The notes under the pieces: generated by a model
What the model was told of the DNA's origin: nothing
Databases searched by the model: none
Seen by the model: the letters and a program-made list of their open reading frames with translations, nothing else
Source of the DNA: Escherichia phage vB_EcoM_PTE-Eco09
DNA length: 64,000 nt
Reading direction: 5' to 3' (one strand)
Sequence record: PQ306574.1
Shown here: positions 8,492-52,480 of the stretch, piece after piece
Layout: the number at the start of each line of letters is the position of its first letter
How positions within the stretch are numbered: the stretch's first letter is position 1
Program-made: the position numbers and the translations under genes

Positions 8492-9706
8492 ATGTTAGTA
8501 CGTCAAGCGCATGAAATTGAATGGACTAAGGAGAAACATAATTGTAGAGCGAAAAGCCCAACAGATTTTTATGGTAAAATTTTAGAAATATGTAAAACAG
8601 AAAATTTAGTTTTTGTCGGCTTTGTTGGGGAATGGGAAGGAAACAAAACAAAAATAAAACTTATCTGCGAACATGGTCATGAATGGATATGTTCGATAGA
8701 TAAATTTGTAAGTAAAGGAACAAGATGTTCTCATAAACAATGTAAAGGTAAACGAATATCTAAAAAATTGTCTATATCCGAAACGGAATACAAAACGAGA
8801 ATTTTAGAAATATGTGAAACTGAAAATCTAATTTTCTTAGGTTTTGTTGGTGAATGGAAAGGGTGTGATACTAAAATTCGCATAAAATGCAAATACGGTC
8901 ATGAATGGGATGTATCTATATATAGCTTCACAAAAATGAATACCAGATGCCCTACATGCGCAGGACAGAACAGGACAAAAGACGAATACAAAACGAGAAT
9001 TTTAGAAATATGTGAAACTGAAAATATAATTTTCTTAGGTTTTGTTGGTGAATGGAAAGGATGCCGCACAAAAATAAAACTTAGCTGCAAACACGGTCAT
9101 GAATGGATATCTTCCATATTATGTTTTGTGTATCAAAATACTCGCTGTCCTGTATGTGTTGGTAGATTGTCTATCGACGATAGAATGATACAGATTAATC
9201 AAGTTTGCAATTCTTTAGGTTATGTAATAATTAAGATCCACGAAGAATGGAAAAACACAGAAACTAAAATTGATGTTAAATGTTTATGTGATTATATATG
9301 GACAACAACAATACATAGAGTCATACATGGGACTACAGGTTGCAGAAAGTGTGCTACACATGGATACAATACAAAAAAATCGGGGACTCTTTATATACAG
9401 AAATTAACCAACGATGATTCCTTTGTTGGTGTGAAATTTGGAATAACAAACAGAGACACGAATGAACGAATGAAAAACCAATCATCAAAGTCTAAATTCG
9501 ACCATGAGATCTTTTATGAATTGACTTTACAAGACGGTCAAAAGATCTTAGAATTAGAGAACAAGATCAAGAAAGCGATGAAAGGTAAAACTTCCTATAT
9601 CTCAAAAGAAGATATGCCGGATGGCTGGACCGAAACAGTAGCGCCGTCTGAATTGAGCACTATCATGTATATCGTAAAAACTTTTGAAAAAGAGTTGACA
9701 GCGTAA
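8492..9706 (+). CDS. protein with three tandem Cys/His zinc-ribbon-like repeats and C-terminal T5orf172/GIY-YIG-superfamily-like domain
   Basis: Repeated block YKTRILEICETENxIFLGFVGEWKGCxTKIxxxCKxGHEW...TRCPxC three times; C-terminus LYIQKL...FVGVKFGITNRDTNERMK resembles T5orf172; occupies the segG position between 32 and frd. Confidence 0.5.
   Translation: MLVRQAHEIEWTKEKHNCRAKSPTDFYGKILEICKTENLVFVGFVGEWEGNKTKIKLICEHGHEWICSIDKFVSKGTRCSHKQCKGKRISKKLSISETEYKTRILEICETENLIFLGFVGEWKGCDTKIRIKCKYGHEWDVSIYSFTKMNTRCPTCAGQNRTKDEYKTRILEICETENIIFLGFVGEWKGCRTKIKLSCKHGHEWISSILCFVYQNTRCPVCVGRLSIDDRMIQINQVCNSLGYVIIKIHEEWKNTETKIDVKCLCDYIWTTTIHRVIHGTTGCRKCATHGYNTKKSGTLYIQKLTNDDSFVGVKFGITNRDTNERMKNQSSKSKFDHEIFYELTLQDGQKILELENKIKKAMKGKTSYISKEDMPDGWTETVAPSELSTIMYIVKTFEKELTA
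8578..9150 (+). repeat. intragenic tandem repeats (about 200-225 bp units, 3 copies)
   Basis: Near-identical stretches such as ACGAGAATTTTAGAAATATGTGAAACTGAAAAT...TTTCTTAGGTTTTGTTGGTGAATGGAAAGG at about 8801 and 8999, and a diverged copy at about 8578. Confidence 0.7.
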
Positions 9707-29455: not shown

Positions 29456-29462
29456 TTTTATT

Positions 29463-29487
29463 AGCCGACCTTAGTGTCGGCTTTTTT
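29463..29487 (+). terminator. intrinsic terminator
   Basis: AGCCGAC-CTTAGT-GTCGGCT hairpin followed by TTTTTTA. Confidence 0.7.
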
Positions 29488-29581: not shown

Positions 29582-29851
29582 ATGGCGCTGACTAAAACCA
29601 CTACCAACTTTGCAAAACGTCACGGCTTCGACCTTGAAATCAATAGCTTTAACGATTACACCCTTCTGTGTGTATATGAAATCGAAAATGATTGCGAGTG
29701 GATGTTCAGCTATCGCGTAAACGAAGACGGATCTTTCACTTGGAACGGAAATATCTATCTTGCACAGGAAGTAAAAGAAGAACTACCGGCGACTATCAAA
29801 GATGAGAAGCATTTACGTCAAGTTTTAAAATTTATTTCTGAAAATATCTAA
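29582..29851 (+). CDS. hypothetical protein
   Basis: 89-aa ORF after cassette. Confidence 0.45.
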   Translation: MALTKTTTNFAKRHGFDLEINSFNDYTLLCVYEIENDCEWMFSYRVNEDGSFTWNGNIYLAQEVKEELPATIKDEKHLRQVLKFISENI

Positions 29852-30531: not shown

Positions 30532-30783
30532 ATGGCTAACATCGAAACCGCAAAGAAAATCGCTAAAGACCTGAACGTTAAAGGCTTCCGTAAACTGAAA
30601 TTACAGCGTGTACGCTACACCATCGGCAAACAGTGCTCTTTCATGAGCGAAGAAGTTGCTAACAGCCTGATTGATAACCTGATTGCGGCTGGCTGGGAAG
30701 TTGCGGATCTGAAAACTTGCCGCGAACTGGCTAAAAAAGGTCTTTTAGATTCTGTTACTATCAAACCAATGGGGGCAGCGTGA
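30532..30783 (+). CDS. hypothetical protein (first gene of coupled operon)
   Basis: 83-aa ORF after cassette. Confidence 0.45.
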   Translation: MANIETAKKIAKDLNVKGFRKLKLQRVRYTIGKQCSFMSEEVANSLIDNLIAAGWEVADLKTCRELAKKGLLDSVTIKPMGAA

Positions 30784-43573: not shown

Positions 43574-43588
43574 TTGAGGTGTTTTATT

Positions 43589-43996
43589 ATGGATCTGAAT
43601 GAACTAAAAGACCAGCTTGACGCTGACGTCAAGATCGACGCAACAAAGCTACAATGGGAAGCACTTAATAACCCTGTAGTTTACTCTAAATGGCTGCGTG
43701 TGTATAGTGAAGCAAAGCGCGAGATCATTGCGCTGGAAGCAAAGAAAAAGAAAGCCACAAAAAATAAACTTGACTTTTACACTAATCGTAGTGATGAATG
43801 GTGTAGAGTGGAGTACGCCACATCAGAATTGAAAGTTGTGATGGCGGCAGATGATGATATCCTACCATTGGATACAAAAATTGCTTATTATCAAATGGTT
43901 ATGGATTTTGCTGGCAAGGCTCTTGATATAATCAAATCACGAGGATTCGCGATCAAGAATGCTATAGAGTTGCGTATGCTTGAGTCTGGAAAGTAA
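43589..43996 (+). CDS. uvsY: recombination mediator UvsY
   Basis: Matches recalled T4 UvsY (D.TKLQ.EA.NN...YSKWL, DEW, LDF...ALD.IKSRGFAIK, E.GK at C-terminus); ATG 43589 after SD GAGGTG. Confidence 0.85.
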   Translation: MDLNELKDQLDADVKIDATKLQWEALNNPVVYSKWLRVYSEAKREIIALEAKKKKATKNKLDFYTNRSDEWCRVEYATSELKVVMAADDDILPLDTKIAYYQMVMDFAGKALDIIKSRGFAIKNAIELRMLESGK

Positions 43997-46064: not shown

Positions 46065-46796
46065 TCACCTTTTAACAAGTTTTCCAAGAACAAAACCATC
46101 AGGAGGGGTGTCACCGCGTTTCACGACCTTATTAACTACCCCGTTGTTATACCACTTACTACCAGTATGAAAATCGTTAAGCCTTGCTACACGCTCGGCG
46201 AGAGCACCGGACTCACGATCCTTTTGGACTTGTCTTAGACACATTTCCCTGTTAGCGGCTTTGCGTTCCTCCGTCCATTCTATATGGTCCCACCCAACAT
46301 GTAAATTACCCTTGACGAATCCGTCAGGTGGAGTTTCTCCATCTCGAACTCGTATAGATTTAACACCGTCGTTGTACCATGTGCTGCCGGAAACACTATC
46401 TCGCATACCTACTATTGCTTTTTTTAGTTTTCCAGTTTTCATATCACGTTCTACGCGCTCTTTGGCAGAAGAAGACATTTTAGCGCGTACAGAGTCTGAG
46501 TATACCTGGTCTCCGTCATAACGACCGCCAGTAACTACATTATAATAATTGGGATCTTTTACAATGTCAACAGTGACAAGTTCTTTTTCGTATAGGTAAG
46601 CATCTTGCTCGGTATCAAACATTTTTAATATGCGCTTCTCGAAGTTCTCAATGCCATATTTTTCAAATGCAGCACGAAGAAGGTCACCAGACCCCATATA
46701 TCCATCATGCATATTGTTAGTAGAATGTTTACCTATATACAATTTGCCGTTTACAAGATTCTTTATCTCATAAACATAATGAAATCTTTTAGCCAT
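46065..46796 (-). CDS. GIY-YIG homing endonuclease (Seg-like)
   Basis: N-terminal FHYVYEIKNLVNGKLYIGKHS GIY-YIG motif; C-terminal repeated DNA-binding modules (GSTWYNDGVKSIRVRDGETPPDGFVKG / GSKWYNNGVVNKVVKRGDTPPDGFVLG). Confidence 0.75.
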   Translation of the reverse strand: MAKRFHYVYEIKNLVNGKLYIGKHSTNNMHDGYMGSGDLLRAAFEKYGIENFEKRILKMFDTEQDAYLYEKELVTVDIVKDPNYYNVVTGGRYDGDQVYSDSVRAKMSSSAKERVERDMKTGKLKKAIVGMRDSVSGSTWYNDGVKSIRVRDGETPPDGFVKGNLHVGWDHIEWTEERKAANREMCLRQVQKDRESGALAERVARLNDFHTGSKWYNNGVVNKVVKRGDTPPDGFVLGKLVKR

Positions 46797-46868
46797 AGTA
46801 AAAATCTCCGTATGCAATAAATACAGTATACAAATATTTATACAAACACCCCCAATCAGGAGAATAAC

Positions 46869-47862: not shown

Positions 47863-49077
47863 ATGGCTTTCACAGTATCAATTAAATCTGACAAAAGATG
47901 TTTTCTTGCTGGAGATGGTTTCACCTTAACGGCGACTGTAGCGGGTGACGAACCATTACCCAGCAATTTGACATATACATGGACAAAAGACGACCAACCA
48001 CATGAAAATAGCACAGCTACGCTATCTGTAGTAGGTGCAACAAGTGAAAATGCGGGTAGCTATAAAGTAACGGTACAGGATACCGATACGATGGAATCAG
48101 TAGAATCTGAAGTTTTCCTCATGGAAGAAGCTGAATTAATCGTAAATATCACCGAACCGCAGCATTTCTACGTATCATCACAAACAGACGTAGAATTACA
48201 TGCAACAGTAAAATTTTCTGGTGGGAAGACTCCAGCAGACAACTATGAACTACATTATAGTTGGAGTAAGGGCGAAGACGTTATAGACACAACACAGGAT
48301 ATTACGATCCAAAAATTTACAGCAGATAAAAACGGCGTGTATACTGTAAAAGTGTGGGGTGAGTCGGAAGATTCAGCCGCTAGCGCATCGACTAAAATCA
48401 TGCTGGCAACAATGAACGTAGATCAGGATGTGGTGGAATCAAAGACCGTGGCACTAGGTAAGGAGATCTTACTTAATTATGTTGTGTCAGAGGACATTGT
48501 AGGCGATTCTAGCGGTATGCCTAAATTGACGATCAAACATAACTGGTATTTGCAGCGCGAAGGGCAACCGTCACCGACTCTGATCGGTAGTGAGGACGGC
48601 GAAGCACTGGAAGGATTTTCTATCATGCCAGACGGTCATCTGTTCAAAGAGAGTGCTACTTACGATGACACAGCCAAATTCTGGTGTGTTGCTAAACTAT
48701 ATCAACAGATTGAAGATGAACCAGTAGAAGTTGCAACAAGTACAAGTAGAAAATGTTCAATGGAAGTTGTTAAAATGTTTCGTTACGTACACCCGATCCC
48801 GTGGCGCAAAACTTCATTTATCTACATTGGATGGTGGGTATTTGACGAGATTGTTAAATTCAATGAGGCTGGGTTAGAGTGGCGTGACCGAGAAGTTTAT
48901 TCTACCAGCAAGTACGCCAAAGATCTGGAGACAATCGCGGCAGCGGAAGAAAAATATAGTGATTGCACTTGCATGGAATCTCGCAATGGTTTCATGTATC
49001 ATTCCAAAGAGTTACATAAACTGGACCGAGATACGTTAGAGCGAGTTCTACGCATTCGTGAAACGCATCCTGCTTAA
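47863..49077 (+). CDS. hoc: highly immunogenic outer capsid protein Hoc
   Basis: Ig-like repeat signatures (LTYTWTKDD...AGSYKVTVQD) and C-terminal capsid-binding region matching recalled T4 Hoc (YVHP.P.R.S..YI.GWWV.DEI.K..E.G..W......ESRNG...H). Confidence 0.8.
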   Translation: MAFTVSIKSDKRCFLAGDGFTLTATVAGDEPLPSNLTYTWTKDDQPHENSTATLSVVGATSENAGSYKVTVQDTDTMESVESEVFLMEEAELIVNITEPQHFYVSSQTDVELHATVKFSGGKTPADNYELHYSWSKGEDVIDTTQDITIQKFTADKNGVYTVKVWGESEDSAASASTKIMLATMNVDQDVVESKTVALGKEILLNYVVSEDIVGDSSGMPKLTIKHNWYLQREGQPSPTLIGSEDGEALEGFSIMPDGHLFKESATYDDTAKFWCVAKLYQQIEDEPVEVATSTSRKCSMEVVKMFRYVHPIPWRKTSFIYIGWWVFDEIVKFNEAGLEWRDREVYSTSKYAKDLETIAAAEEKYSDCTCMESRNGFMYHSKELHKLDRDTLERVLRIRETHPA

Positions 49078-49088
49078 TGAAATCTATC

Positions 49089-49115
49089 AGCCATCCTTCG
49101 GGGTGGCTTTTTTGT
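49089..49115 (+). terminator. intrinsic terminator after hoc
   Basis: GCCATCC-TTCG-GGGTGGC hairpin (UUCG loop) followed by TTTTTTGTTTTT. Confidence 0.7.
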
Positions 49116-49124
49116 TTTTAGTGC

Positions 49125-49152
49125 TTGACAGAGCGATTTAGATGCCTATAAT
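49125..49152 (+). promoter_or_regulatory. sigma70-like promoter (TTGACA-16-TATAAT)
   Basis: TTGACA 49125-49130, TATAAT 49147-49152. Confidence 0.5.
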
Positions 49153-49279
49153 GGCACGCATCGACATGCTACTGTCCATAGTGAGGCGAATAAAATATTA
49201 TGAATATGGGGGTTGAAATGGCGTTGATAACTGTTACTGTATTATTCGTTGTTGTGTTTATGAATGTATGAGGTGAAGT

Positions 49280-49477
49280 ATGAATGAGATTGTACGATTG
49301 ATCAAAGAAGCACCAATCGAGATGTATTTTCTGGCTTTGGTTGCAACAATGGTCTATCAGCTAGTCGCATGTCATGTGTGGAAGTCGGAAAATGCTTTTA
49401 TCCGGTTTTTTGGTACTGTCATGATCCAGTTTCCGGTACTGATCACTATCCTGTTAATCGTCAATGGGGCGAAGTGA
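49280..49477 (+). CDS. hypothetical small membrane protein
   Basis: 65-aa ORF with two hydrophobic segments. Confidence 0.4.
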   Translation: MNEIVRLIKEAPIEMYFLALVATMVYQLVACHVWKSENAFIRFFGTVMIQFPVLITILLIVNGAK

Positions 49478-49752
49478 TGGACAAGAAAACAGCGTTAATG
49501 GTTTACATGCTACGAGAAGACCACGGTCTTAATTTTGTTGATATTGCTAAAAAGATTGGCGGGATCAGCGGACAAGATGCGGCTAAGGCATGGTTGATGG
49601 TAAAAGATGCACGCGAGGCTTACGCCAGCCGCGAAAAGGTTGTTTATCGTAAACACCATATCAACAAAAAATTTAAAAATAAAGTTCAAAAACGTGTTGA
49701 CAAGCCAAATAACACTGTTATAATGGACGCATTCAAACGGGCAATGTCCTGA
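49477..49752 (+). CDS. hypothetical basic protein
   Basis: 91-aa ORF, ATG overlapping upstream stop (TGATG). Confidence 0.4.
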   Translation: MDKKTALMVYMLREDHGLNFVDIAKKIGGISGQDAAKAWLMVKDAREAYASREKVVYRKHHINKKFKNKVQKRVDKPNNTVIMDAFKRAMS

Positions 49753-49798
49753 TTTGTAATTAATATTCTGAATAACTAATCAATAGAGGTGACTAATT

Positions 49799-50236
49799 AT
49801 GAAATTCCGTAAAAACCACGTAGCAATGAAAAAGGCAATGTTCGAAGCATTCAAAGCAGTTGATCAGGGCGGTGTTACTCTGATTGAGCAAATTAATGTT
49901 GATGTTTGGCAATCTCCGGCGATCACCTGCTCCCGTCTTGCTACGGCTGGCCTTCTGAAAGTTCACAGCTCTACCGCATACGACGAAGCATTGCAAGTCA
50001 TTAAGGCTTTTGCGGGAGACGTTACCAGCAAGTGGGTCTATGTGAATAAAGGTGAAATTGCGGTTGCTCACGTAGGCAACAATATTCAGATGGAAATCAA
50101 GATTAAGGAAGGGTCTAAACGCAATCAGATGCTTGTTCGATTCCAACCATACAAAACTAACGTAGTGCCGGATGATCTGATCATCTCTAAGAGTAATGTT
50201 ACCATTCGCCGAAATCAGATCGTTATCAACAAATAA
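49799..50236 (+). CDS. hypothetical protein
   Basis: 145-aa ORF with SD GAGGTG; followed by terminator. Confidence 0.45.
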   Translation: MKFRKNHVAMKKAMFEAFKAVDQGGVTLIEQINVDVWQSPAITCSRLATAGLLKVHSSTAYDEALQVIKAFAGDVTSKWVYVNKGEIAVAHVGNNIQMEIKIKEGSKRNQMLVRFQPYKTNVVPDDLIISKSNVTIRRNQIVINK

Positions 50237-50244
50237 TTAACATT

Positions 50245-50271
50245 AGCCGTCCTTCGGGGCGGCTTTTTTGT
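50245..50271 (+). terminator. intrinsic terminator
   Basis: AGCCGTCC-TTCG-GGGCGGCT hairpin followed by TTTTTTG. Confidence 0.7.
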
Positions 50272-50322
50272 ATATGTTATTAACATAATTTTAGTTTACA
50301 TGTGCACAATATTAATACTGTT

Positions 50323-50497
50323 TGATTAAATTATGATCAAAACGAAGAAAGATCTTTAGAACATAGAAAATGTATCTTTGGTTAATTATTAATCACTACA
50401 TATTGTAACACAAATGTTATACTCCGTAGGAGTTCGCGAAGCGATATCCTTTTGTGTAGTTTTTACATGTATGATTAAATTATGATCAAAACGAAGA
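50323..50497 (+). repeat. pair of 26-bp direct repeats in a 380-bp non-coding region
   Basis: TGATTAAATTATGATCAAAACGAAGA at 50323-50348 and 50472-50497, each preceded by TTTACATGT and containing TGAT/ATCA dyad elements. Confidence 0.7.
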
Positions 50498-50650
50498 CTT
50501 ATCTTATAGAATAATAAAAATTTGTTTCGAACATTTATTAATCAATTACTGGAAGTGTTTTTAATGCTCGCTGTGCTCGCTTCCGCTACGCGGATACTTG
50601 TATTTGTTATTAACTTGTAGTATGATATTGCTTTCTATGGAGGAAATATT

Positions 50651-51238
50651 ATGTTTGACCAGTTACAAGATCTATTTGGAGTAAAACCACTTCGTAGATG
50701 TGCTTTAATCGGCTCTAGAAAAGCGCCTAGCGACATTTTGATAATGGCTAGTACCATTGGGAGGGTATTGTCAGAAAATCGCGTTGTAGCGCATTCTGGA
50801 GGGGCTTACGGTATGGACAATGCTTTCATGAAGTATTACGATCCAGAGTATAGAAAAATTTTCATTCCAAATTGGAAGTTTTATGACCACAAGCATAACG
50901 GTCATGATGTGATTGCATGGCAAACCTTAGAACAAAAAAATCTGGCGATGGATGAATTAGAACACGTTTATGATAATCCTCGTTCTATACCGTTATACAT
51001 GCAAAATCTGTTTTCTAGAAATGTTGCTCAAGTCTTAGGTGAGACACTTGATGATCCTGTAGATTGTGTGATATTCTGGGCGAAAGAAGTTAATGGAATC
51101 GTTTCTGGAGGAACTAGAATTGCTGTTTATGTTGCCCGTAGACATGGGATACCATGTTTTAACTTATATCATCAAGAAAATAGATCCGCCGTCGAAAAAA
51201 TCTTGGGCGGATCTGACTTGTCTTGGTTAGATATTTAG
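50651..51238 (+). CDS. DprA/Smf-like Rossmann-fold (SLOG superfamily) protein
   Basis: ALIGSRKAP, VAHSGGAYGMDNA, LFSRNVAQVLG and IVSGGTRIAVYVARRHGIPCF blocks parallel DprA signature (GSR ... SGxAxGxD ... FxxRN ... SGxxxTAxxA ... G). Confidence 0.5.
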   Translation: MFDQLQDLFGVKPLRRCALIGSRKAPSDILIMASTIGRVLSENRVVAHSGGAYGMDNAFMKYYDPEYRKIFIPNWKFYDHKHNGHDVIAWQTLEQKNLAMDELEHVYDNPRSIPLYMQNLFSRNVAQVLGETLDDPVDCVIFWAKEVNGIVSGGTRIAVYVARRHGIPCFNLYHQENRSAVEKILGGSDLSWLDI

Positions 51239-52480
51239 TTAAGCGTTGTCAATCTCAAGCGGTGGCAGTTCGATTCCTAAAATGTAGGACATTTCTGAAC
51301 GTCCAGCCATTTTACCCCAATCGTCACCCTTGATGACCTGGTGTTCTTCCTGATCAACTTTTGATGTATATGGGTTGACAGAGAGTGAATAACGATTCAT
51401 AATAGCTACATGATGCTGGAAGCTATTAGGGTCAATTACACTCTTATACGCGCCAGCGCCGTCGGCTTCTGTATATGGGGAGTAGAACAGAGAACCTACA
51501 CTCTCCATATCACCGATCATGTGCTTACAACCAACGAGCATATAATCGAAAGGTGTTGTCGTGTCTGCGTACACTTCCAGACCGCAACGTAGACGACCTT
51601 CGCTTAGAGCATTGTCGGTTTCTTCCATCCAACCGGAAGATTGCAGGAGGCCAACCACGCGAGAAGACGCCAAAACGTATGTACCAGCAAAGGAGGAAGT
51701 CCGCAACATTTGATTGCTCATTTCGCAAGCATAGCGGTAAAGTTCACGCGCTTGTGTTGGTGCATCCTGAACGCTAACGAGAGAAAGTACGCCATCAGGG
51801 GTGATCCCTTTAATTTTATAGCGAGATGATACAGTGATCAACTTCTGAATAATATCTTTGTTGATCTCTTCGGAAGCAACAGTAGCCAGAAGATCAATTA
51901 CAGAGTTTTCAGAGTTGATTTGGCTTGCCTCAAGATCCTGCATCAATTCGGTCGTGAATGAGGTTTTCAGTTTACGAGAACCTACATTAACTTGCCACTT
52001 GTCAAACTGCATAGAGGTAGACGCAATTTCGGTGTTTTTATCTTCAAAGTATTCTACCGATGCACAATCGCTATAGAAACGAATTTTGTTTGTCATTACG
52101 CCTTTAAAGATCGCAGCTTCTGGAGTTGCGGCATCTTCACCGACTGTACCAGCGGTCACAACTTCGTATACAACATCGCCTGATTTGAATAGTGCGCCTT
52201 CGTCATAAGATTTTTCTTTTGAAAACTCTTCAATCTCTGTGCGATCACCAACCGCGCCACCGTAGGTTGCAGCAGTTCGGAAAGTCATCTGACCATCATG
52301 ATTAAGATAACGTAGGCCGTACAATGCAGATACTGGTTGATCCGTTGGCTGGATTGCTACCAGATCAGAGAAAATCAGGTTGTTTACCGCGCGAGTTAAT
52401 GATAATAGTTGCGGTCGCGCTGTCTGGTTAGCTACTGAGGAAGTAGATTCCCGCAACAGTTCAGTAAAAATATGAGTCAT
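51239..52480 (-). CDS. 24: head vertex protein gp24
   Basis: Matches recalled T4 gp24 (ELLRESTS...RP.L..LTRA...LI.SD.VA.Q.T.QPV.A.YG..YLN, KWQ..V.SRKLKT..T.EL.QDLEA, DLLAT....EINKDI.Q.LITVS.RYK..GIT, LYR..CEM, SIFY.PYTE, NPYT, DKMAGRS); ATG taken at MTHIF (52480). Confidence 0.85.
   Translation of the reverse strand: MTHIFTELLRESTSSVANQTARPQLLSLTRAVNNLIFSDLVAIQPTDQPVSALYGLRYLNHDGQMTFRTAATYGGAVGDRTEIEEFSKEKSYDEGALFKSGDVVYEVVTAGTVGEDAATPEAAIFKGVMTNKIRFYSDCASVEYFEDKNTEIASTSMQFDKWQVNVGSRKLKTSFTTELMQDLEASQINSENSVIDLLATVASEEINKDIIQKLITVSSRYKIKGITPDGVLSLVSVQDAPTQARELYRYACEMSNQMLRTSSFAGTYVLASSRVVGLLQSSGWMEETDNALSEGRLRCGLEVYADTTTPFDYMLVGCKHMIGDMESVGSLFYSPYTEADGAGAYKSVIDPNSFQHHVAIMNRYSLSVNPYTSKVDQEEHQVIKGDDWGKMAGRSEMSYILGIELPPLEIDNA

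Follow-up and report, generated by a model that had tools for sequence, protein, structure and literature searches.

A conserved 73-nt hairpin module in RB49-like T4-type coliphages with a homologue in Escherichia coli prophages

The gap upstream of the DprA-like gene of Escherichia phage vB_EcoM_PTE-Eco09 (record PQ306574.1; the window is the whole 64-kb stretch of DNA analysed, and is that of a Krischvirus, an RB49-like T4-type coliphage) very probably holds a conserved non-coding module twice in tandem, each time as a 73-nt AU-rich hairpin with one or two short GC hairpins 3′ of it (Table 1). Full-text literature searches for the sequences of the element, and for Krischvirus transcriptomics or origins, returned nothing relevant, and the 73-nt hairpin appears from its sequence to be previously undescribed. 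We tentatively favor the view that it is one folded strand of the module that acts, in all likelihood RNA co-directional with the flanking genes.

Table 1. Features of the gap and its flanks, and positions of all hairpin copies
Feature	Position	Strand	Remarks
Intrinsic terminator of the upstream 145-aa ORF	50245–50264	+	Stem, UUCG loop, then T run
Fast-evolving spacer	50265–50320	none	20/56 sites segregating, 17 genomes
Left copy of 17-nt repeat TTGTATATGTTATTAAC	50268–50284		Inside the spacer
Hairpin copy A, 73 nt	50323–50395	+	Covariance-model match 80.4 bits, E 2e-12
Copy A helix P1	50323–50328 with 50390–50395
Copy A helix P2	50334–50347 with 50371–50384
Extended −10-like box TGTTATACT (candidate)	50415–50423	+	Copy A linker, directed into copy B
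Two GC mini-hairpins of copy A	50423–50444	+	TCC-GTA-GGA 50423–50431; TCGC-GAA-GCGA 50434–50444
Hairpin copy B, 73 nt	50472–50544	+	Covariance-model match 73.5 bits, E 4.5e-11
Copy B helix P1	50472–50477 with 50539–50544
Copy B helix P2	50483–50496 with 50520–50533
Direct repeat GCTCGCT-GT-GCTCGCT	50566–50581	+	Copy B linker; kept in L004 as GCTCGCTTTGCTCGC
GC mini-hairpin of copy B, TCCGC-TAC-GCGGA	50582–50594	+	Terminator-like; 3 nt 5′ of −35 box
Candidate sigma-70-type promoter of DprA-like gene	50598–50626	+	TTGTAT 50598–50603, 17 nt, TATGAT 50621–50626
Shine-Dalgarno GGAGG	50639–50643	+	Precedes ATG at 50651
DprA-like gene	50651–51238	+	Pfam DNA_processg_A match sub-threshold, 22.3 bits vs cut-off 29.6
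All four hairpin copies	Window 50323–50395 and 50472–50544; L019 23111–23182; L020 49785–49856	minus for L020

The two exact 26-mers (TGATTAAATTATGATCAAAACGAAGA) that a sequence-only reading had picked out in this gap lie on the + strand at 50323–50348 and 50472–50497, 149 nt apart from start to start, and the TGAT...ATCA dyad that it saw within them is likewise there. Shuffles give an expectation of 0 for this repeat, and no third copy occurs in the 64-kb window even when 3 mismatches are allowed; the likeness between the two copies reaches 38 nt at 89% identity. That reading missed both the inverted partner ATTAATCA, found 65 nt 3′ of each 26-mer (50388–50395 and 50537–50544), and the recurrence of the repeat unit at other sites of the genome. 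The 26-mers are the left (5′) halves of two tandem 73-nt hairpin copies, with the first of them made up of the 5′ arm of helix P1, the internal loop and the 5′ arm of helix P2. Their perfect identity is best explained by gene conversion among copies together with purifying selection, rather than by protein operator sites. The gap also proved to lack a plausible ORF, as had been claimed: the window and its divergent relative L004 have no conserved ORF there, a 2-nt indel between the two shifting the reading frame. A hydrophobic 32-aa ORF with a TTG start (50522–50620) was discarded as a gene on account of a frameshift in 16/18 genomes.

Searches with nhmmer and a covariance model recovered exactly four copies of the hairpin in the genome at three loci, namely copies A and B in the gap, copy C upstream of gene 3, and copy D between the homologues of tail-fibre genes 35 and 36. 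Downstream of the copies lie the DprA-like gene, gene 3 and a tail-fibre gene. The module is directed toward the downstream gene at each of the three loci, with a terminator (or a divergent gene start) on one side and the promoter of the next gene on the other. The copies are mosaics of each other, with 78–81% A+T overall (19–26% G+C), and most have a weak −10-like hexamer resembling TATAC(T/A) 0–4 nt upstream. Conservation in relatives, which had been named as a check, is complete: the four copies occupy the same three loci in 58/58 Krischvirus records, and the tandem pair is retained in L004. BLAST with the whole gap finds extra places in each genome, at which only the terminator hairpin is repeated.

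Variation of the elements within the genus is one quarter of that at third codon positions (18/277 segregating sites as against 193/738; Fisher p 1e-13), with 5/73 sites segregating in copy A and 1/73 in copy B, which contains the second 26-mer. The 55-nt spacer before them evolves freely, its variability being no different from that of third codon positions. These patterns bear on a selfish reading of the module as a miniature repeat like MITE or ERIC elements, which would spread among intergenic sites and from phage to phage; its hairpin would represent terminal inverted repeats and it would have no phage function. It is indeed a multi-copy, intergenic, hairpin-forming element common to unrelated phages, between which a tail-fibre gene and two small genes have moved as well, and the ends of the hairpin look like 7-bp terminal inverted repeats (TGATTAA/TTAATCA). 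However, the 58 genomes show zero presence/absence polymorphism, with neither empty nor novel sites; even the divergent L004 keeps the tandem pair. No target-site duplication is visible flanking the four copies, and the flanking ORFs and annotations that were looked at included no obvious transposase gene. Moreover, strong purifying selection covers the entire element, and the compensatory changes fall inside the stem rather than preserving identical ends. We regard such a selfish origin as very improbable.

The hairpin has an outer helix P1 of 6 bp, which a 5×5 internal loop separates from an inner helix P2 that is imperfect and about 14 bp long. The GC mini-hairpins of the module have 3-nt loops throughout, mostly GAA or GTA. 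A gap-free alignment accommodates 19 distinct copies of 72–73 nt (one with a 3-nt insertion). In this alignment 86.3% of the P1 and P2 cells are paired, as opposed to 29–52% with slid partners; 6 pairs change on both sides, against 0–1 in the slid controls; and the covariation score is 0.180 versus at most 0.071 in controls, with 0/500 shuffles reaching the observed value, though this covariation rests on about 6 independent lineages because many of the 19 sequences are close relatives. The column pair 13/61 alone runs through CG, AU, GU and GC. RNAalifold independently recovered P1 together with the basal part of P2. For the consensus the folding energy is just −0.5 kcal/mol; single copies reach −10 to −19.5 kcal/mol, and the P1/P2 hairpin is the minimum-energy fold in 6/8 copies, copy A included. 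The 35 G.U cells as against 11 A.C cells favor the + strand, which is also that of the flanking genes. Local hairpins within the 26-mer (columns 1–6/12–17 and 57–62/68–73) were also considered: 80% of their cells are pairable, but their covariation does not rise above the controls, and the long hairpin is preferred over them. For the changes in both 26-mers of G2248, a reading as loss of GATC gave way to the long-hairpin model, in which the copy-A change turns a U.G into a C-G and the copy-B change breaks a pair.

The same alignment speaks to the operator array that the sequence-only reading had entertained, here taken to mean TGAT-N9-ATCA dyads that would bind a dimeric protein regulating the DprA-like gene. 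Each unit does contain two 17-bp dyads 56 bp apart, the second being a perfect palindrome, TGATTAATTATTAATCA, in 8/18 genomes, and TGAT[TC]AA is about 37-fold enriched in the region. Nevertheless, the proposal was not upheld, as the half-sites differ within one genome (TGATTA/TGATCA versus TGGTTA/TAACCA, the latter form found in copies C and D) with both arms changing together, and covariation extends beyond the dyads to columns 18–25 with 49–56. No further similar TGAT-N9-ATCA site exists in the window, the remaining copies precede unrelated late genes, and no gene for a DNA-binding protein or regulator was found nearby, leaving operator function highly improbable. We also tried and rejected a Type III antitoxin of the ToxI kind, with head-to-tail repeats of about 36–45 nt directly 5′ of an endoribonuclease toxin gene: the unit spacing here is 149 nt, the other copies are single, and the genes downstream are those listed above.

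The long hairpin thus preferred also has a homologue outside the genus, with about 80% identity (E 1e-11 to 1e-17), in a family of 35-kb E. coli prophages. These carry one module per genome, and 57/5426 complete E. coli genomes have the homologue. One example is the hicB-integrated prophage of the O55:H7 strain DEC5A (NZ_CP038394, 2752700–2752850). The allele of the 06-00048 prophage has the same flanks as that of DEC5A and a core only 74% identical, which still forms a perfect 11-bp P2. The prophage copy sits in the sole large gene-free stretch (1.27 kb) of the 35-kb prophage, and about 350 bp from it are seven iterons of the form (A)GTGTAGGTTT, an AT-rich stretch and TTATCCGCC. The prophage is without recognisable replication genes, its module is directed away from the nearest gene, and its mini-hairpins are not followed by a U tract. 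The proteins that it has in common with the phage are limited to the tail fibre, two small proteins and a homing-endonuclease domain, and among the early-region proteins of the prophage none with a phage homologue fits the role of a shared binding partner.

Wider searches did not extend this distribution. The gene-free region of the prophage has no match among INPHARED phages or PLSDB plasmids, and a scan of GTDB with a structured pattern gave 36 chance matches in AT-rich genomes and zero homologues. In Rfam 15 the stretch 49000–52000 of the window yielded, at E<=10, chance matches of at most 24 bits against gathering thresholds of 80–95, all outside the hairpins, and three prophage loci put to the same search had no match at the gathering threshold. 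ARAGORN detected no tRNA or tmRNA. BLAST of the conserved core against the 5426 E. coli genomes revealed no chromosomal target, by a method that is blind to short seed pairings.

Several features around the hairpins are conserved in their own right. The upstream terminator shows compensatory changes relative to L004 and has near-identical counterparts at 49089 and 29460. The TGTTATACT box in the copy A linker, a candidate promoter judging by its sequence, belongs to an invariant block (50411–50455), and L004 has TGTTAAAAT at the aligned position. In the mini-hairpin region of copy A, TTCGCGAAGCGATATC is unchanged in L004, GCGAAGC occurs at 50436–50442, and a T-rich stretch, CCTTTTGTGTAGTTTTT, follows 3′ of the mini-hairpins. 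A pair of mini-hairpins with different stems is also present 3′ of copies C and D and of the prophage copies. The L004 counterpart of the copy B mini-hairpin is TCGGC-GTA-GCCGA, whose stem is retained by compensatory changes. The earlier suggestion of a promoter TTGTAT-17-TATGAT next to it stands insofar as the site is present and conserved in L004 as TTGTTT-17-TATGAT in the same place; it has 9/12 matches, below the 12/12 promoter at 49697, and is absent from the promoter-scan list, sigma-70 scans performing at chance level on this AT-rich DNA. The first 17 nt of this site are the right copy of the flanking direct repeat, and the TTGTATATGTTATTAAC copy in the spacer resembles a decayed duplicate of the promoter region of the DprA-like gene.

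This arrangement recalls the approximately 50 promoter-early stem-loop (PeSL) cassettes of RB49 and phi1, which act both as terminators and as promoters and also bring about the shuffling of genes (PMC2839356). The module could be read as an extended cassette of that type, no more than a stacked-hairpin insulator of transcription with AT-rich DNA upstream of the adjacent promoter, kept alike between loci by recombination and serving as a site for modular shuffling. The copy-B mini-hairpin with TTGTAT-17-TATGAT after it corresponds to the PeSL class with a stem-loop upstream of the −35; the 17-nt repeats at 50268 and 50598 bracket the tandem pair and co-vary in L004; in the Krischvirus contig L055 a promoter and an ORFan are inserted exactly after the mini-hairpins of copy C; and the mosaic nature of the copies fits as well. 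On the other hand, PeSL stem-loops take the form G(n)-loop-C(n) with near-perfect sigma-70 boxes, neither of which the 73-nt hairpin has, and the copy-B mini-hairpin, terminator-like and adjacent to a promoter, is yet not of the G(n)/C(n) kind. PeSL loci vary between close relatives, whereas the four copies are fixed in 58/58 genomes, and copies A and D are already preceded by strong terminators. Further, insulation accounts neither for a 73-nt hairpin of invariant length with compensatory changes nor for the occurrence of its homologue, at 80% identity, in a temperate phage unrelated to this one. We consider this interpretation improbable.

The remaining two explanations, structured RNA and origin, lead the field, and both had been among the options of the sequence-only reading. 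The first, which we tentatively favor, draws on the covariation, the strand bias and the conservation. Under it, the transcript of copy B would start near 50430, driven by the conserved extended −10 box in the copy A linker, or else arise by read-through of the upstream terminator. The functional part would be the long hairpin, which would be recognised or processed in the manner of T7 RNase III sites or else form the body of a small regulatory RNA, and the GC mini-hairpins with U-rich tails might be 3′ stabilisers or weak terminators insulating the next promoter. Several observations weigh against RNA. No conserved promoter was found before copy A, whose upstream 55 nt evolve neutrally; copies C and D are preceded by weak −10-like hexamers only; and none of hairpins A, C and D has a near-consensus sigma-70 promoter before it. 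DNA between a terminator or divergent gene start and the next promoter is not obviously transcribed. The low consensus folding energy, and in the prophage the missing U tract, the orientation away from the nearest gene and the iteron array about 350 bp off, count on the same side, as do the UUCG loops of the phage's own terminators, unlike the 3-nt loops of the mini-hairpins. GNA loops are reportedly exceptionally stable in DNA and not in RNA, according to the mini-hairpin work of Hirao, Yoshizawa and colleagues.

Under the second explanation the module would act through DNA as an origin, with a weak promoter-like box and a 73-bp A+T-rich unwinding element, and the three loci would be the origins of the genus. 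The displaced non-template (+) strand would form the hairpin, via an R-loop as in T4 oriF/oriG or through supercoiling; the folded strand would stabilise the opening and offer a branched or single-stranded site for loading helicase and primase, with the GC mini-hairpins as clamps or ssDNA signals. Its supports include the A+T content (78–81%), the placement of the hairpins in apparently untranscribed spacers between terminator and promoter, and the prophage copy in its 1.27-kb gene-free stretch about 350 bp from seven iterons. To these may be added the TATAC(T/A)-like hexamer 0–4 nt 5′ of most copies, the preference of GNA-type 3-nt loops for DNA hairpins, and the one-strand G.T wobbles, which suit a displaced non-template strand as well as RNA. 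In the coarse pattern of cumulative GC skew, the minimum falls about 2 kb from copy C, and copies A/B are located at a convergent switch. Also in its favor, T4 has at least five origins of about 100 bp, each with a promoter and an AT-rich unwinding element, of which oriE, oriF and oriG are in late-gene regions near strand-switch zones (PMC3016281). Against this, T4 unwinding elements are not sequence-specific (PMC3016281), in contrast to the strong sequence conservation and the covarying pairs of the present element. Its positions agree only loosely with those of the T4 origins: a distance of 6.3 kb separates uvsY from copy A, and copy D, flanked by the homologues of genes 35 and 36, is not within gene 34. 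No initiator protein common to prophage and phage was found, nor any origin mapping for Krischvirus in the literature searched. We regard the origin reading as a serious rival, though a somewhat less probable one than RNA.

T4-type genomes are gene-packed, yet here approximately 330 nt of non-coding sequence are strongly conserved, present in four copies genus-wide, and shared with an unrelated temperate coliphage; this conservation, presence and sharing mark a function not described before. It is conceivable, though we would not call it probable, that the hairpin with its GC mini-hairpins represents a new class of phage element that works via one folded strand and has passed between temperate coliphages and a virulent T4-type genus because it engages an E. 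coli host factor. The class could be a hairpin-based signal for replication initiation or primosome loading, constituting the origins of MotA-less T4-type phages and lying beside an iteron origin in the prophage; just as well, both kinds of phage could be making a new structured RNA directed at the host. If it is RNA, a new structured RNA family is added to well-studied T4-like coliphages and E. coli prophages. RB49-type phages are not known to carry motA. Should the element prove to be an origin module, these would be the first sequence-defined origins for T4-type phages without MotA, and the replication start of such phages would become directly testable because three defined loci are at hand. 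Some 60 deposited Krischvirus genomes, several of them phage-therapy candidates, and 57 complete E. coli genomes hold an unannotated element.

Finally, the module can be set beside several known systems. The ERIC/IRU and MITE-like repeats of enterobacteria are imperfect intergenic palindromes of about 70–130 nt that form RNA hairpins and can affect mRNA stability; they have no sequence similarity to the present element, which is phage-borne, position-fixed, under strong purifying selection and without insertion polymorphism. The RNase III hairpins of phage T7 (R0.3, R1.1 and others) are multi-copy, intergenic, irregular AU-rich hairpins of about 60–70 nt, and the parallels include the succession of lower stem, internal loop and upper stem, the orientation with transcription, the location tens of nt 5′ of a gene start and the similarity between copies. 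The element indeed displays an RNase III-type architecture, about two turns of coaxial helix with an internal loop conserved in register. Unlike the T7 sites, to which it has no sequence relationship, it has strong terminators or a divergent gene start ahead of its copies, which makes its presence in mRNA uncertain. Mini-hairpins of the d(GCGAAGC)/GNA-loop type, said to go back to Hirao, Yoshizawa and colleagues, are matched by its C-GAA-G, C-GTA-G and related 3-nt-loop hairpins; those are biophysical motifs, whereas the element is a genetic family whose folding as DNA is a prediction.

T4 oriF = ori(uvsY) and oriG = ori(34) are likewise modules of about 100 bp with a promoter-like box and an A+T-rich stretch, a description that the hairpins fit as regards an A+T-rich unwinding element, and they too occur several per genome in late-gene regions, with a single-stranded non-template strand (PMC3016281). 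They differ in that they have no sequence in common, require MotA-dependent promoters and contain unwinding elements replaceable by unrelated sequence (PMC3016281), whereas sequence and pairing of the element are conserved and its positions only loosely syntenic with theirs. Closest in setting are the PeSLs (Arbiol et al. 2010, PMC2839356; Comeau et al. 2014, PMC4122927), which are found in the same genus as intergenic composites of stem-loop and early promoter, in an AT-rich context, repeated across the genome and tied to recombination junctions; the 3′ end of copy B with TTGTAT-17-TATGAT looks like a weak one. Neither of these papers (PMC2839356, PMC4122927) mentions the 73-nt hairpin element. 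PeSLs number about 50, are short motifs mostly located in hyperplastic regions, and vary among close relatives, in contrast to the element, which is a fixed four-copy family with a covarying 73-nt AU-rich hairpin and a homologue in a temperate prophage.

The window derives from a Krischvirus, a T4-type coliphage of the RB49/phi1/JSE-like kind, and the interval 49800-51300 is matched by 58 phage records at 95-100% identity. The gap of interest precedes a gene annotated as DprA-like, the product of which gives a sub-threshold Pfam DprA match; hoc, inh, a SegE-like GIY-YIG gene, uvsW, uvsW.1 and uvsY lie farther upstream. The sequence-only reading had described this gap as devoid of a plausible ORF and as bearing two identical 26-bp repeats (TGATTAAATTATGATCAAAACGAAGA) and a candidate TTGTAT-17-TATGAT promoter. 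All of this was borne out: the gap has zero conserved ORFs, the 26-mers recur with a spacing of 149 nt, and the TTGTAT-17-TATGAT sequence is followed by GGAGG and ATG. A hydrophobic 32-aa TTG-start ORF overlapping copy B of the element described below (MFRTFINQLLEVFLMLAVLASATRILVFVINL; annotated in some GenBank records) is without a ribosome-binding site and its frame is disrupted in 16 of 18 genomes by a 1-nt indel at 50558; it is therefore probably not a gene. The terminator at the 5' end of the gap belongs to a recurring UUCG-loop type, AGCC(G/A)TCCTTCGGGG(C/T)GGCTTTTTTGT, with compensatory stem changes, which accounts for the surplus BLAST matches per genome when the whole gap is the query. 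The 145-aa ORF is preceded by TTGACA-16-TATAAT, a sigma-70 promoter that matches the consensus at 12 of 12 positions, carries an upstream TG and is a typical example of the near-consensus early type described in RB49/phi1.

Coordinates of the element copies and associated features (window positions unless a locus is named)
Feature	Position	Strand	Setting
uvsY	43574-43996		farther upstream
UUCG-loop terminators, further copies	29460-29487; 49089-49115		
Sigma-70 promoter	49697-49724		before 145-aa ORF
145-aa ORF, function unassigned (phrog_15652)	49799-50236	+	5' neighbour of gap
Gap	50237-50650		between two + strand genes
Strong UUCG-loop terminator (recurring motif)	50245-50264 (50245-50271)		ends 145-aa ORF
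Copy A (26-mer)	50323-50395 (50323-50348)		in gap
Extended -10 box	50415-50423		reads into copy B
Copy B (26-mer)	50472-50544 (50472-50497)		in gap
32-aa ORF	50522-50620		overlaps copy B
TTGTAT-17-TATGAT	50598-50626		
DprA-like gene	50651-51238	+	3' neighbour of gap
Gene 24 (head vertex)		minus	converges on DprA-like gene
Copy C	L019 23111-23182	+	between divergent small gene and gene 3 homologue (tail completion)
Copy D	L020 49785-49856	minus	between homologues of long-tail-fibre genes 35 and 36
DEC5A gene-free stretch	L097 8940-10213 (NZ_CP038394 ~2752589-2753862)		1.27 kb, with element; the prophage's only large one
Seven iterons, (A)GTGTAGGTTT	L097 ~9530-9650		~350 bp from element
TGATTAATTATTAATC	L097 ~10046		identical to second dyad of copy A

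A third 26-mer was sought across the window with up to 3 mismatches and none was found, chance expectation also being none. Exactly 65 nt to the 3' side of each 26-mer lies an inverted partner, ATTAATCA, and the remainder of the near-identical genome kaaroe (MN850574; loci L019 and L020) yielded two more copies of the unit, C and D, the latter with a terminator 5' and a late promoter (TATAAATA) 3' of it. A genome-wide covariance-model search recovered exactly these four copies, and BLAST found all four in 58/58 Krischvirus records; that they are a mere selfish repeat is very improbable. All copies are built alike: a 72-74 nt hairpin is followed, after a linker of 1-37 nt, by one or two GC hairpins with 3-7 bp stems and 3-nt loops (GAA, GTA, TAC, AAA). 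The stems of these mini-hairpins vary among copies yet remain complementary (TCGC-GAA-GCGA; GUGCC-UAC-GGCAC; GCAACC-GAA-GGUUGC; UCCC-GAA-GGGA; GACGCUC-CCU-GAGCGUC), as in TCCGC-TAC-GCGGA of the window against TCGGC-GTA-GCCGA of L004, a divergent metagenomic relative (DprA-like protein 86% identical) with the same gap architecture and two tandem units. The unit tails are orthologous between L004 and the window phage; hence, the duplication is an old one, and inside each genome the heads of the units have become homogenised. The copies are also mosaics of one another, with A having CAAAACGAAGAAAGATCTTTAGAA in common with C and D while B has TAGAATAATAAAAATTTGTTTCG, and gene conversion thus best explains why the two 26-mers are perfectly identical. 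In L004 the DprA-like start codon further lies ~170 nt more distant from the conserved promoter; the additional stretch (2270-2440), absent from the window, has long complementary segments (GATACCCTAAAA / TTTTAGAGGGTAT, CGCT...AGCG) and may be a structured 5' leader. In one Krischvirus contig (L055 ~2735-2660, minus; IMG/VR 3300045988_033703), the copy C mini-hairpins are followed directly, at CAATTG, by an insertion that comprises a TTGACA-17-TAGATT consensus promoter and an additional small ORF, in what looks like an insertion junction of the promoter-early stem-loop (PeSL) type.

We aligned 19 distinct hairpins without internal gaps and tested a structure with an outer helix P1 (columns 1-6 with 68-73), a 5x5 internal loop and an inner helix P2 (columns 12-25 with 49-62) against partners slid by 1-3 columns and 500 shuffles. 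The named structure pairs 86.3% of cells (slid controls 29-52%), has 6 pairs changed on both sides (controls 0-1) and a covariation score of 0.180 (controls at most 0.071), and 0/500 shuffles reached the observed value. Pair 13/61 occurs as CG, AU, GU or GC, and 15/59 as CG, UA or UG. RNAalifold, without being supplied the model, recovered P1 and the base of P2, albeit with a weak consensus energy (-0.5 kcal/mol), and the tested fold is the minimum-energy structure in 6/8 representative copies (-10 to -19.5 kcal/mol). In this model the 26-mer would comprise the 5' arm of P1, the internal loop and the 5' arm of P2; alternative local hairpins within it gave no gain over controls. On the + strand, G.U pairs outnumber A.C mismatches (35 vs 11), implying that one particular strand folds, and this is the sense strand of the flanking genes at 3/3 phage loci.

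Among 17 genomes, 18/277 sites segregate in the elements (50321-50597), as against 193/738 third codon positions of four flanking genes (Fisher p 1e-13), whereas the spacer 50265-50320 (20/56) is no different from the latter. Several substitutions better the pairing, such as G50381A (U.G to U-A) and the change at 50337 in genome G2248 (U.G to C-G). In G2248 each of the tandem copies carries a substitution at column 15 (50337 and 50486), T to C bettering the pair in A and T to A breaking it in B; both changes abolish the GATC site.

Outside the genus, an IMG/VR pattern scan followed by nhmmer unexpectedly uncovered the same element in ~25 prophage contigs of 17-45 kb (E 1e-11 to 1e-17; ~80% identity across 75-85 nt), and 57/5426 complete E. 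coli chromosomes carry it unannotated. In E. coli O55:H7 DEC5A, it lies in a 35 kb prophage inserted in hicB, which codes for a serine recombinase, tail, capsid, portal and terminase proteins and a Rha regulator, with no recognisable replication genes. Its gene-free stretch also holds, ~350 bp from the element, an AT-rich stretch, TTATCCGCC and at least 8 further GC mini-hairpins with GAA/GTA/TTC/TAC loops, besides TTGACA-17-TATACT and repeated AAGTGAT(T/C) motifs. This stretch probably serves as origin and control region for a prophage family that has no representative in INPHARED or PLSDB. Comparison with the 06-00048 prophage (L098 6003-6075 vs L097 9067-9139) offers a natural experiment that supports the hairpin model: the flanks are identical, while the 73-nt core is only 74% identical, with every stem change compensated in an allele-like replacement limited to the hairpin. 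The 06-00048 core has a perfect 11-bp P2 (z-score -6.7). This replacement is reminiscent of the specificity variants known among control elements of the antisense or origin kind. The CAAAAGAGAGA variant is also found in the L004 unit. The prophage and the Krischvirus have in common a distal tail-fibre protein (40% identity across 894 aa; L139 26614-30039 vs L020 45387-47930), two small function-unassigned proteins (phrog_6147 and phrog_14908; 43-46%; window 29582-29851 and 30532-30783) and a GIY-YIG/NUMOD3 homing-endonuclease domain (window 46065-46817); the two phage types have hence traded genes.

The element is thus a real, strongly constrained non-coding family common to virulent and temperate coliphages, and comparative analysis establishes it as one that evidently works as a folded single strand. 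It is apparently undescribed so far: nothing similar was found in INPHARED outside Krischvirus, PLSDB or GTDB species representatives, no Rfam family matches it, a full-text literature search with its sequences gave no match, and it goes undescribed in the RB49 and phi1 PeSL papers (PMC2839356; PMC4122927). The kind of molecule and its role we infer. Our tentative preference is that it would work as a structured RNA, in keeping with the strand asymmetry of pairing, its co-orientation with downstream genes, the conserved extended -10 box TGTTATACT (TGTTAAAAT in L004), and the terminator-like phage mini-hairpins with U-rich tails; the geometry of the hairpin is also like that of T7 RNase III sites. 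An operator array, which the sequence-only reading had offered beside an origin-like element and a non-coding RNA, can hardly be expected.

Against RNA, the module is placed at 3/3 loci after a terminator or divergent gene start and ahead of the next promoter, the sequence 5' of copy A is unconstrained, and the mini-hairpins have GNA-type loops, which stabilise such hairpins in DNA, whereas phage terminators carry UUCG. These favour an origin or single-stranded-DNA module, a serious though less likely alternative, as do the 78-81% A+T of the hairpin, reminiscent of an unwinding element, the iterons adjoining the prophage copy and a coarse skew pattern, with the cumulative GC-skew minimum ~2 kb from copy C and copies A/B at a convergent switch. 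The element may be likened to T4 origins, ~100-bp modules of a promoter and an AT-rich element that sit in late regions by strand switches, with the displaced non-template strand single-stranded (PMC3016281); however, synteny with oriE, oriF and oriG is only loose. A PeSL-like insulator or recombination cassette is improbable: the 3' end of copy B with its promoter is like a weak PeSL, but the 73-nt hairpin family is no PeSL under the published criteria.
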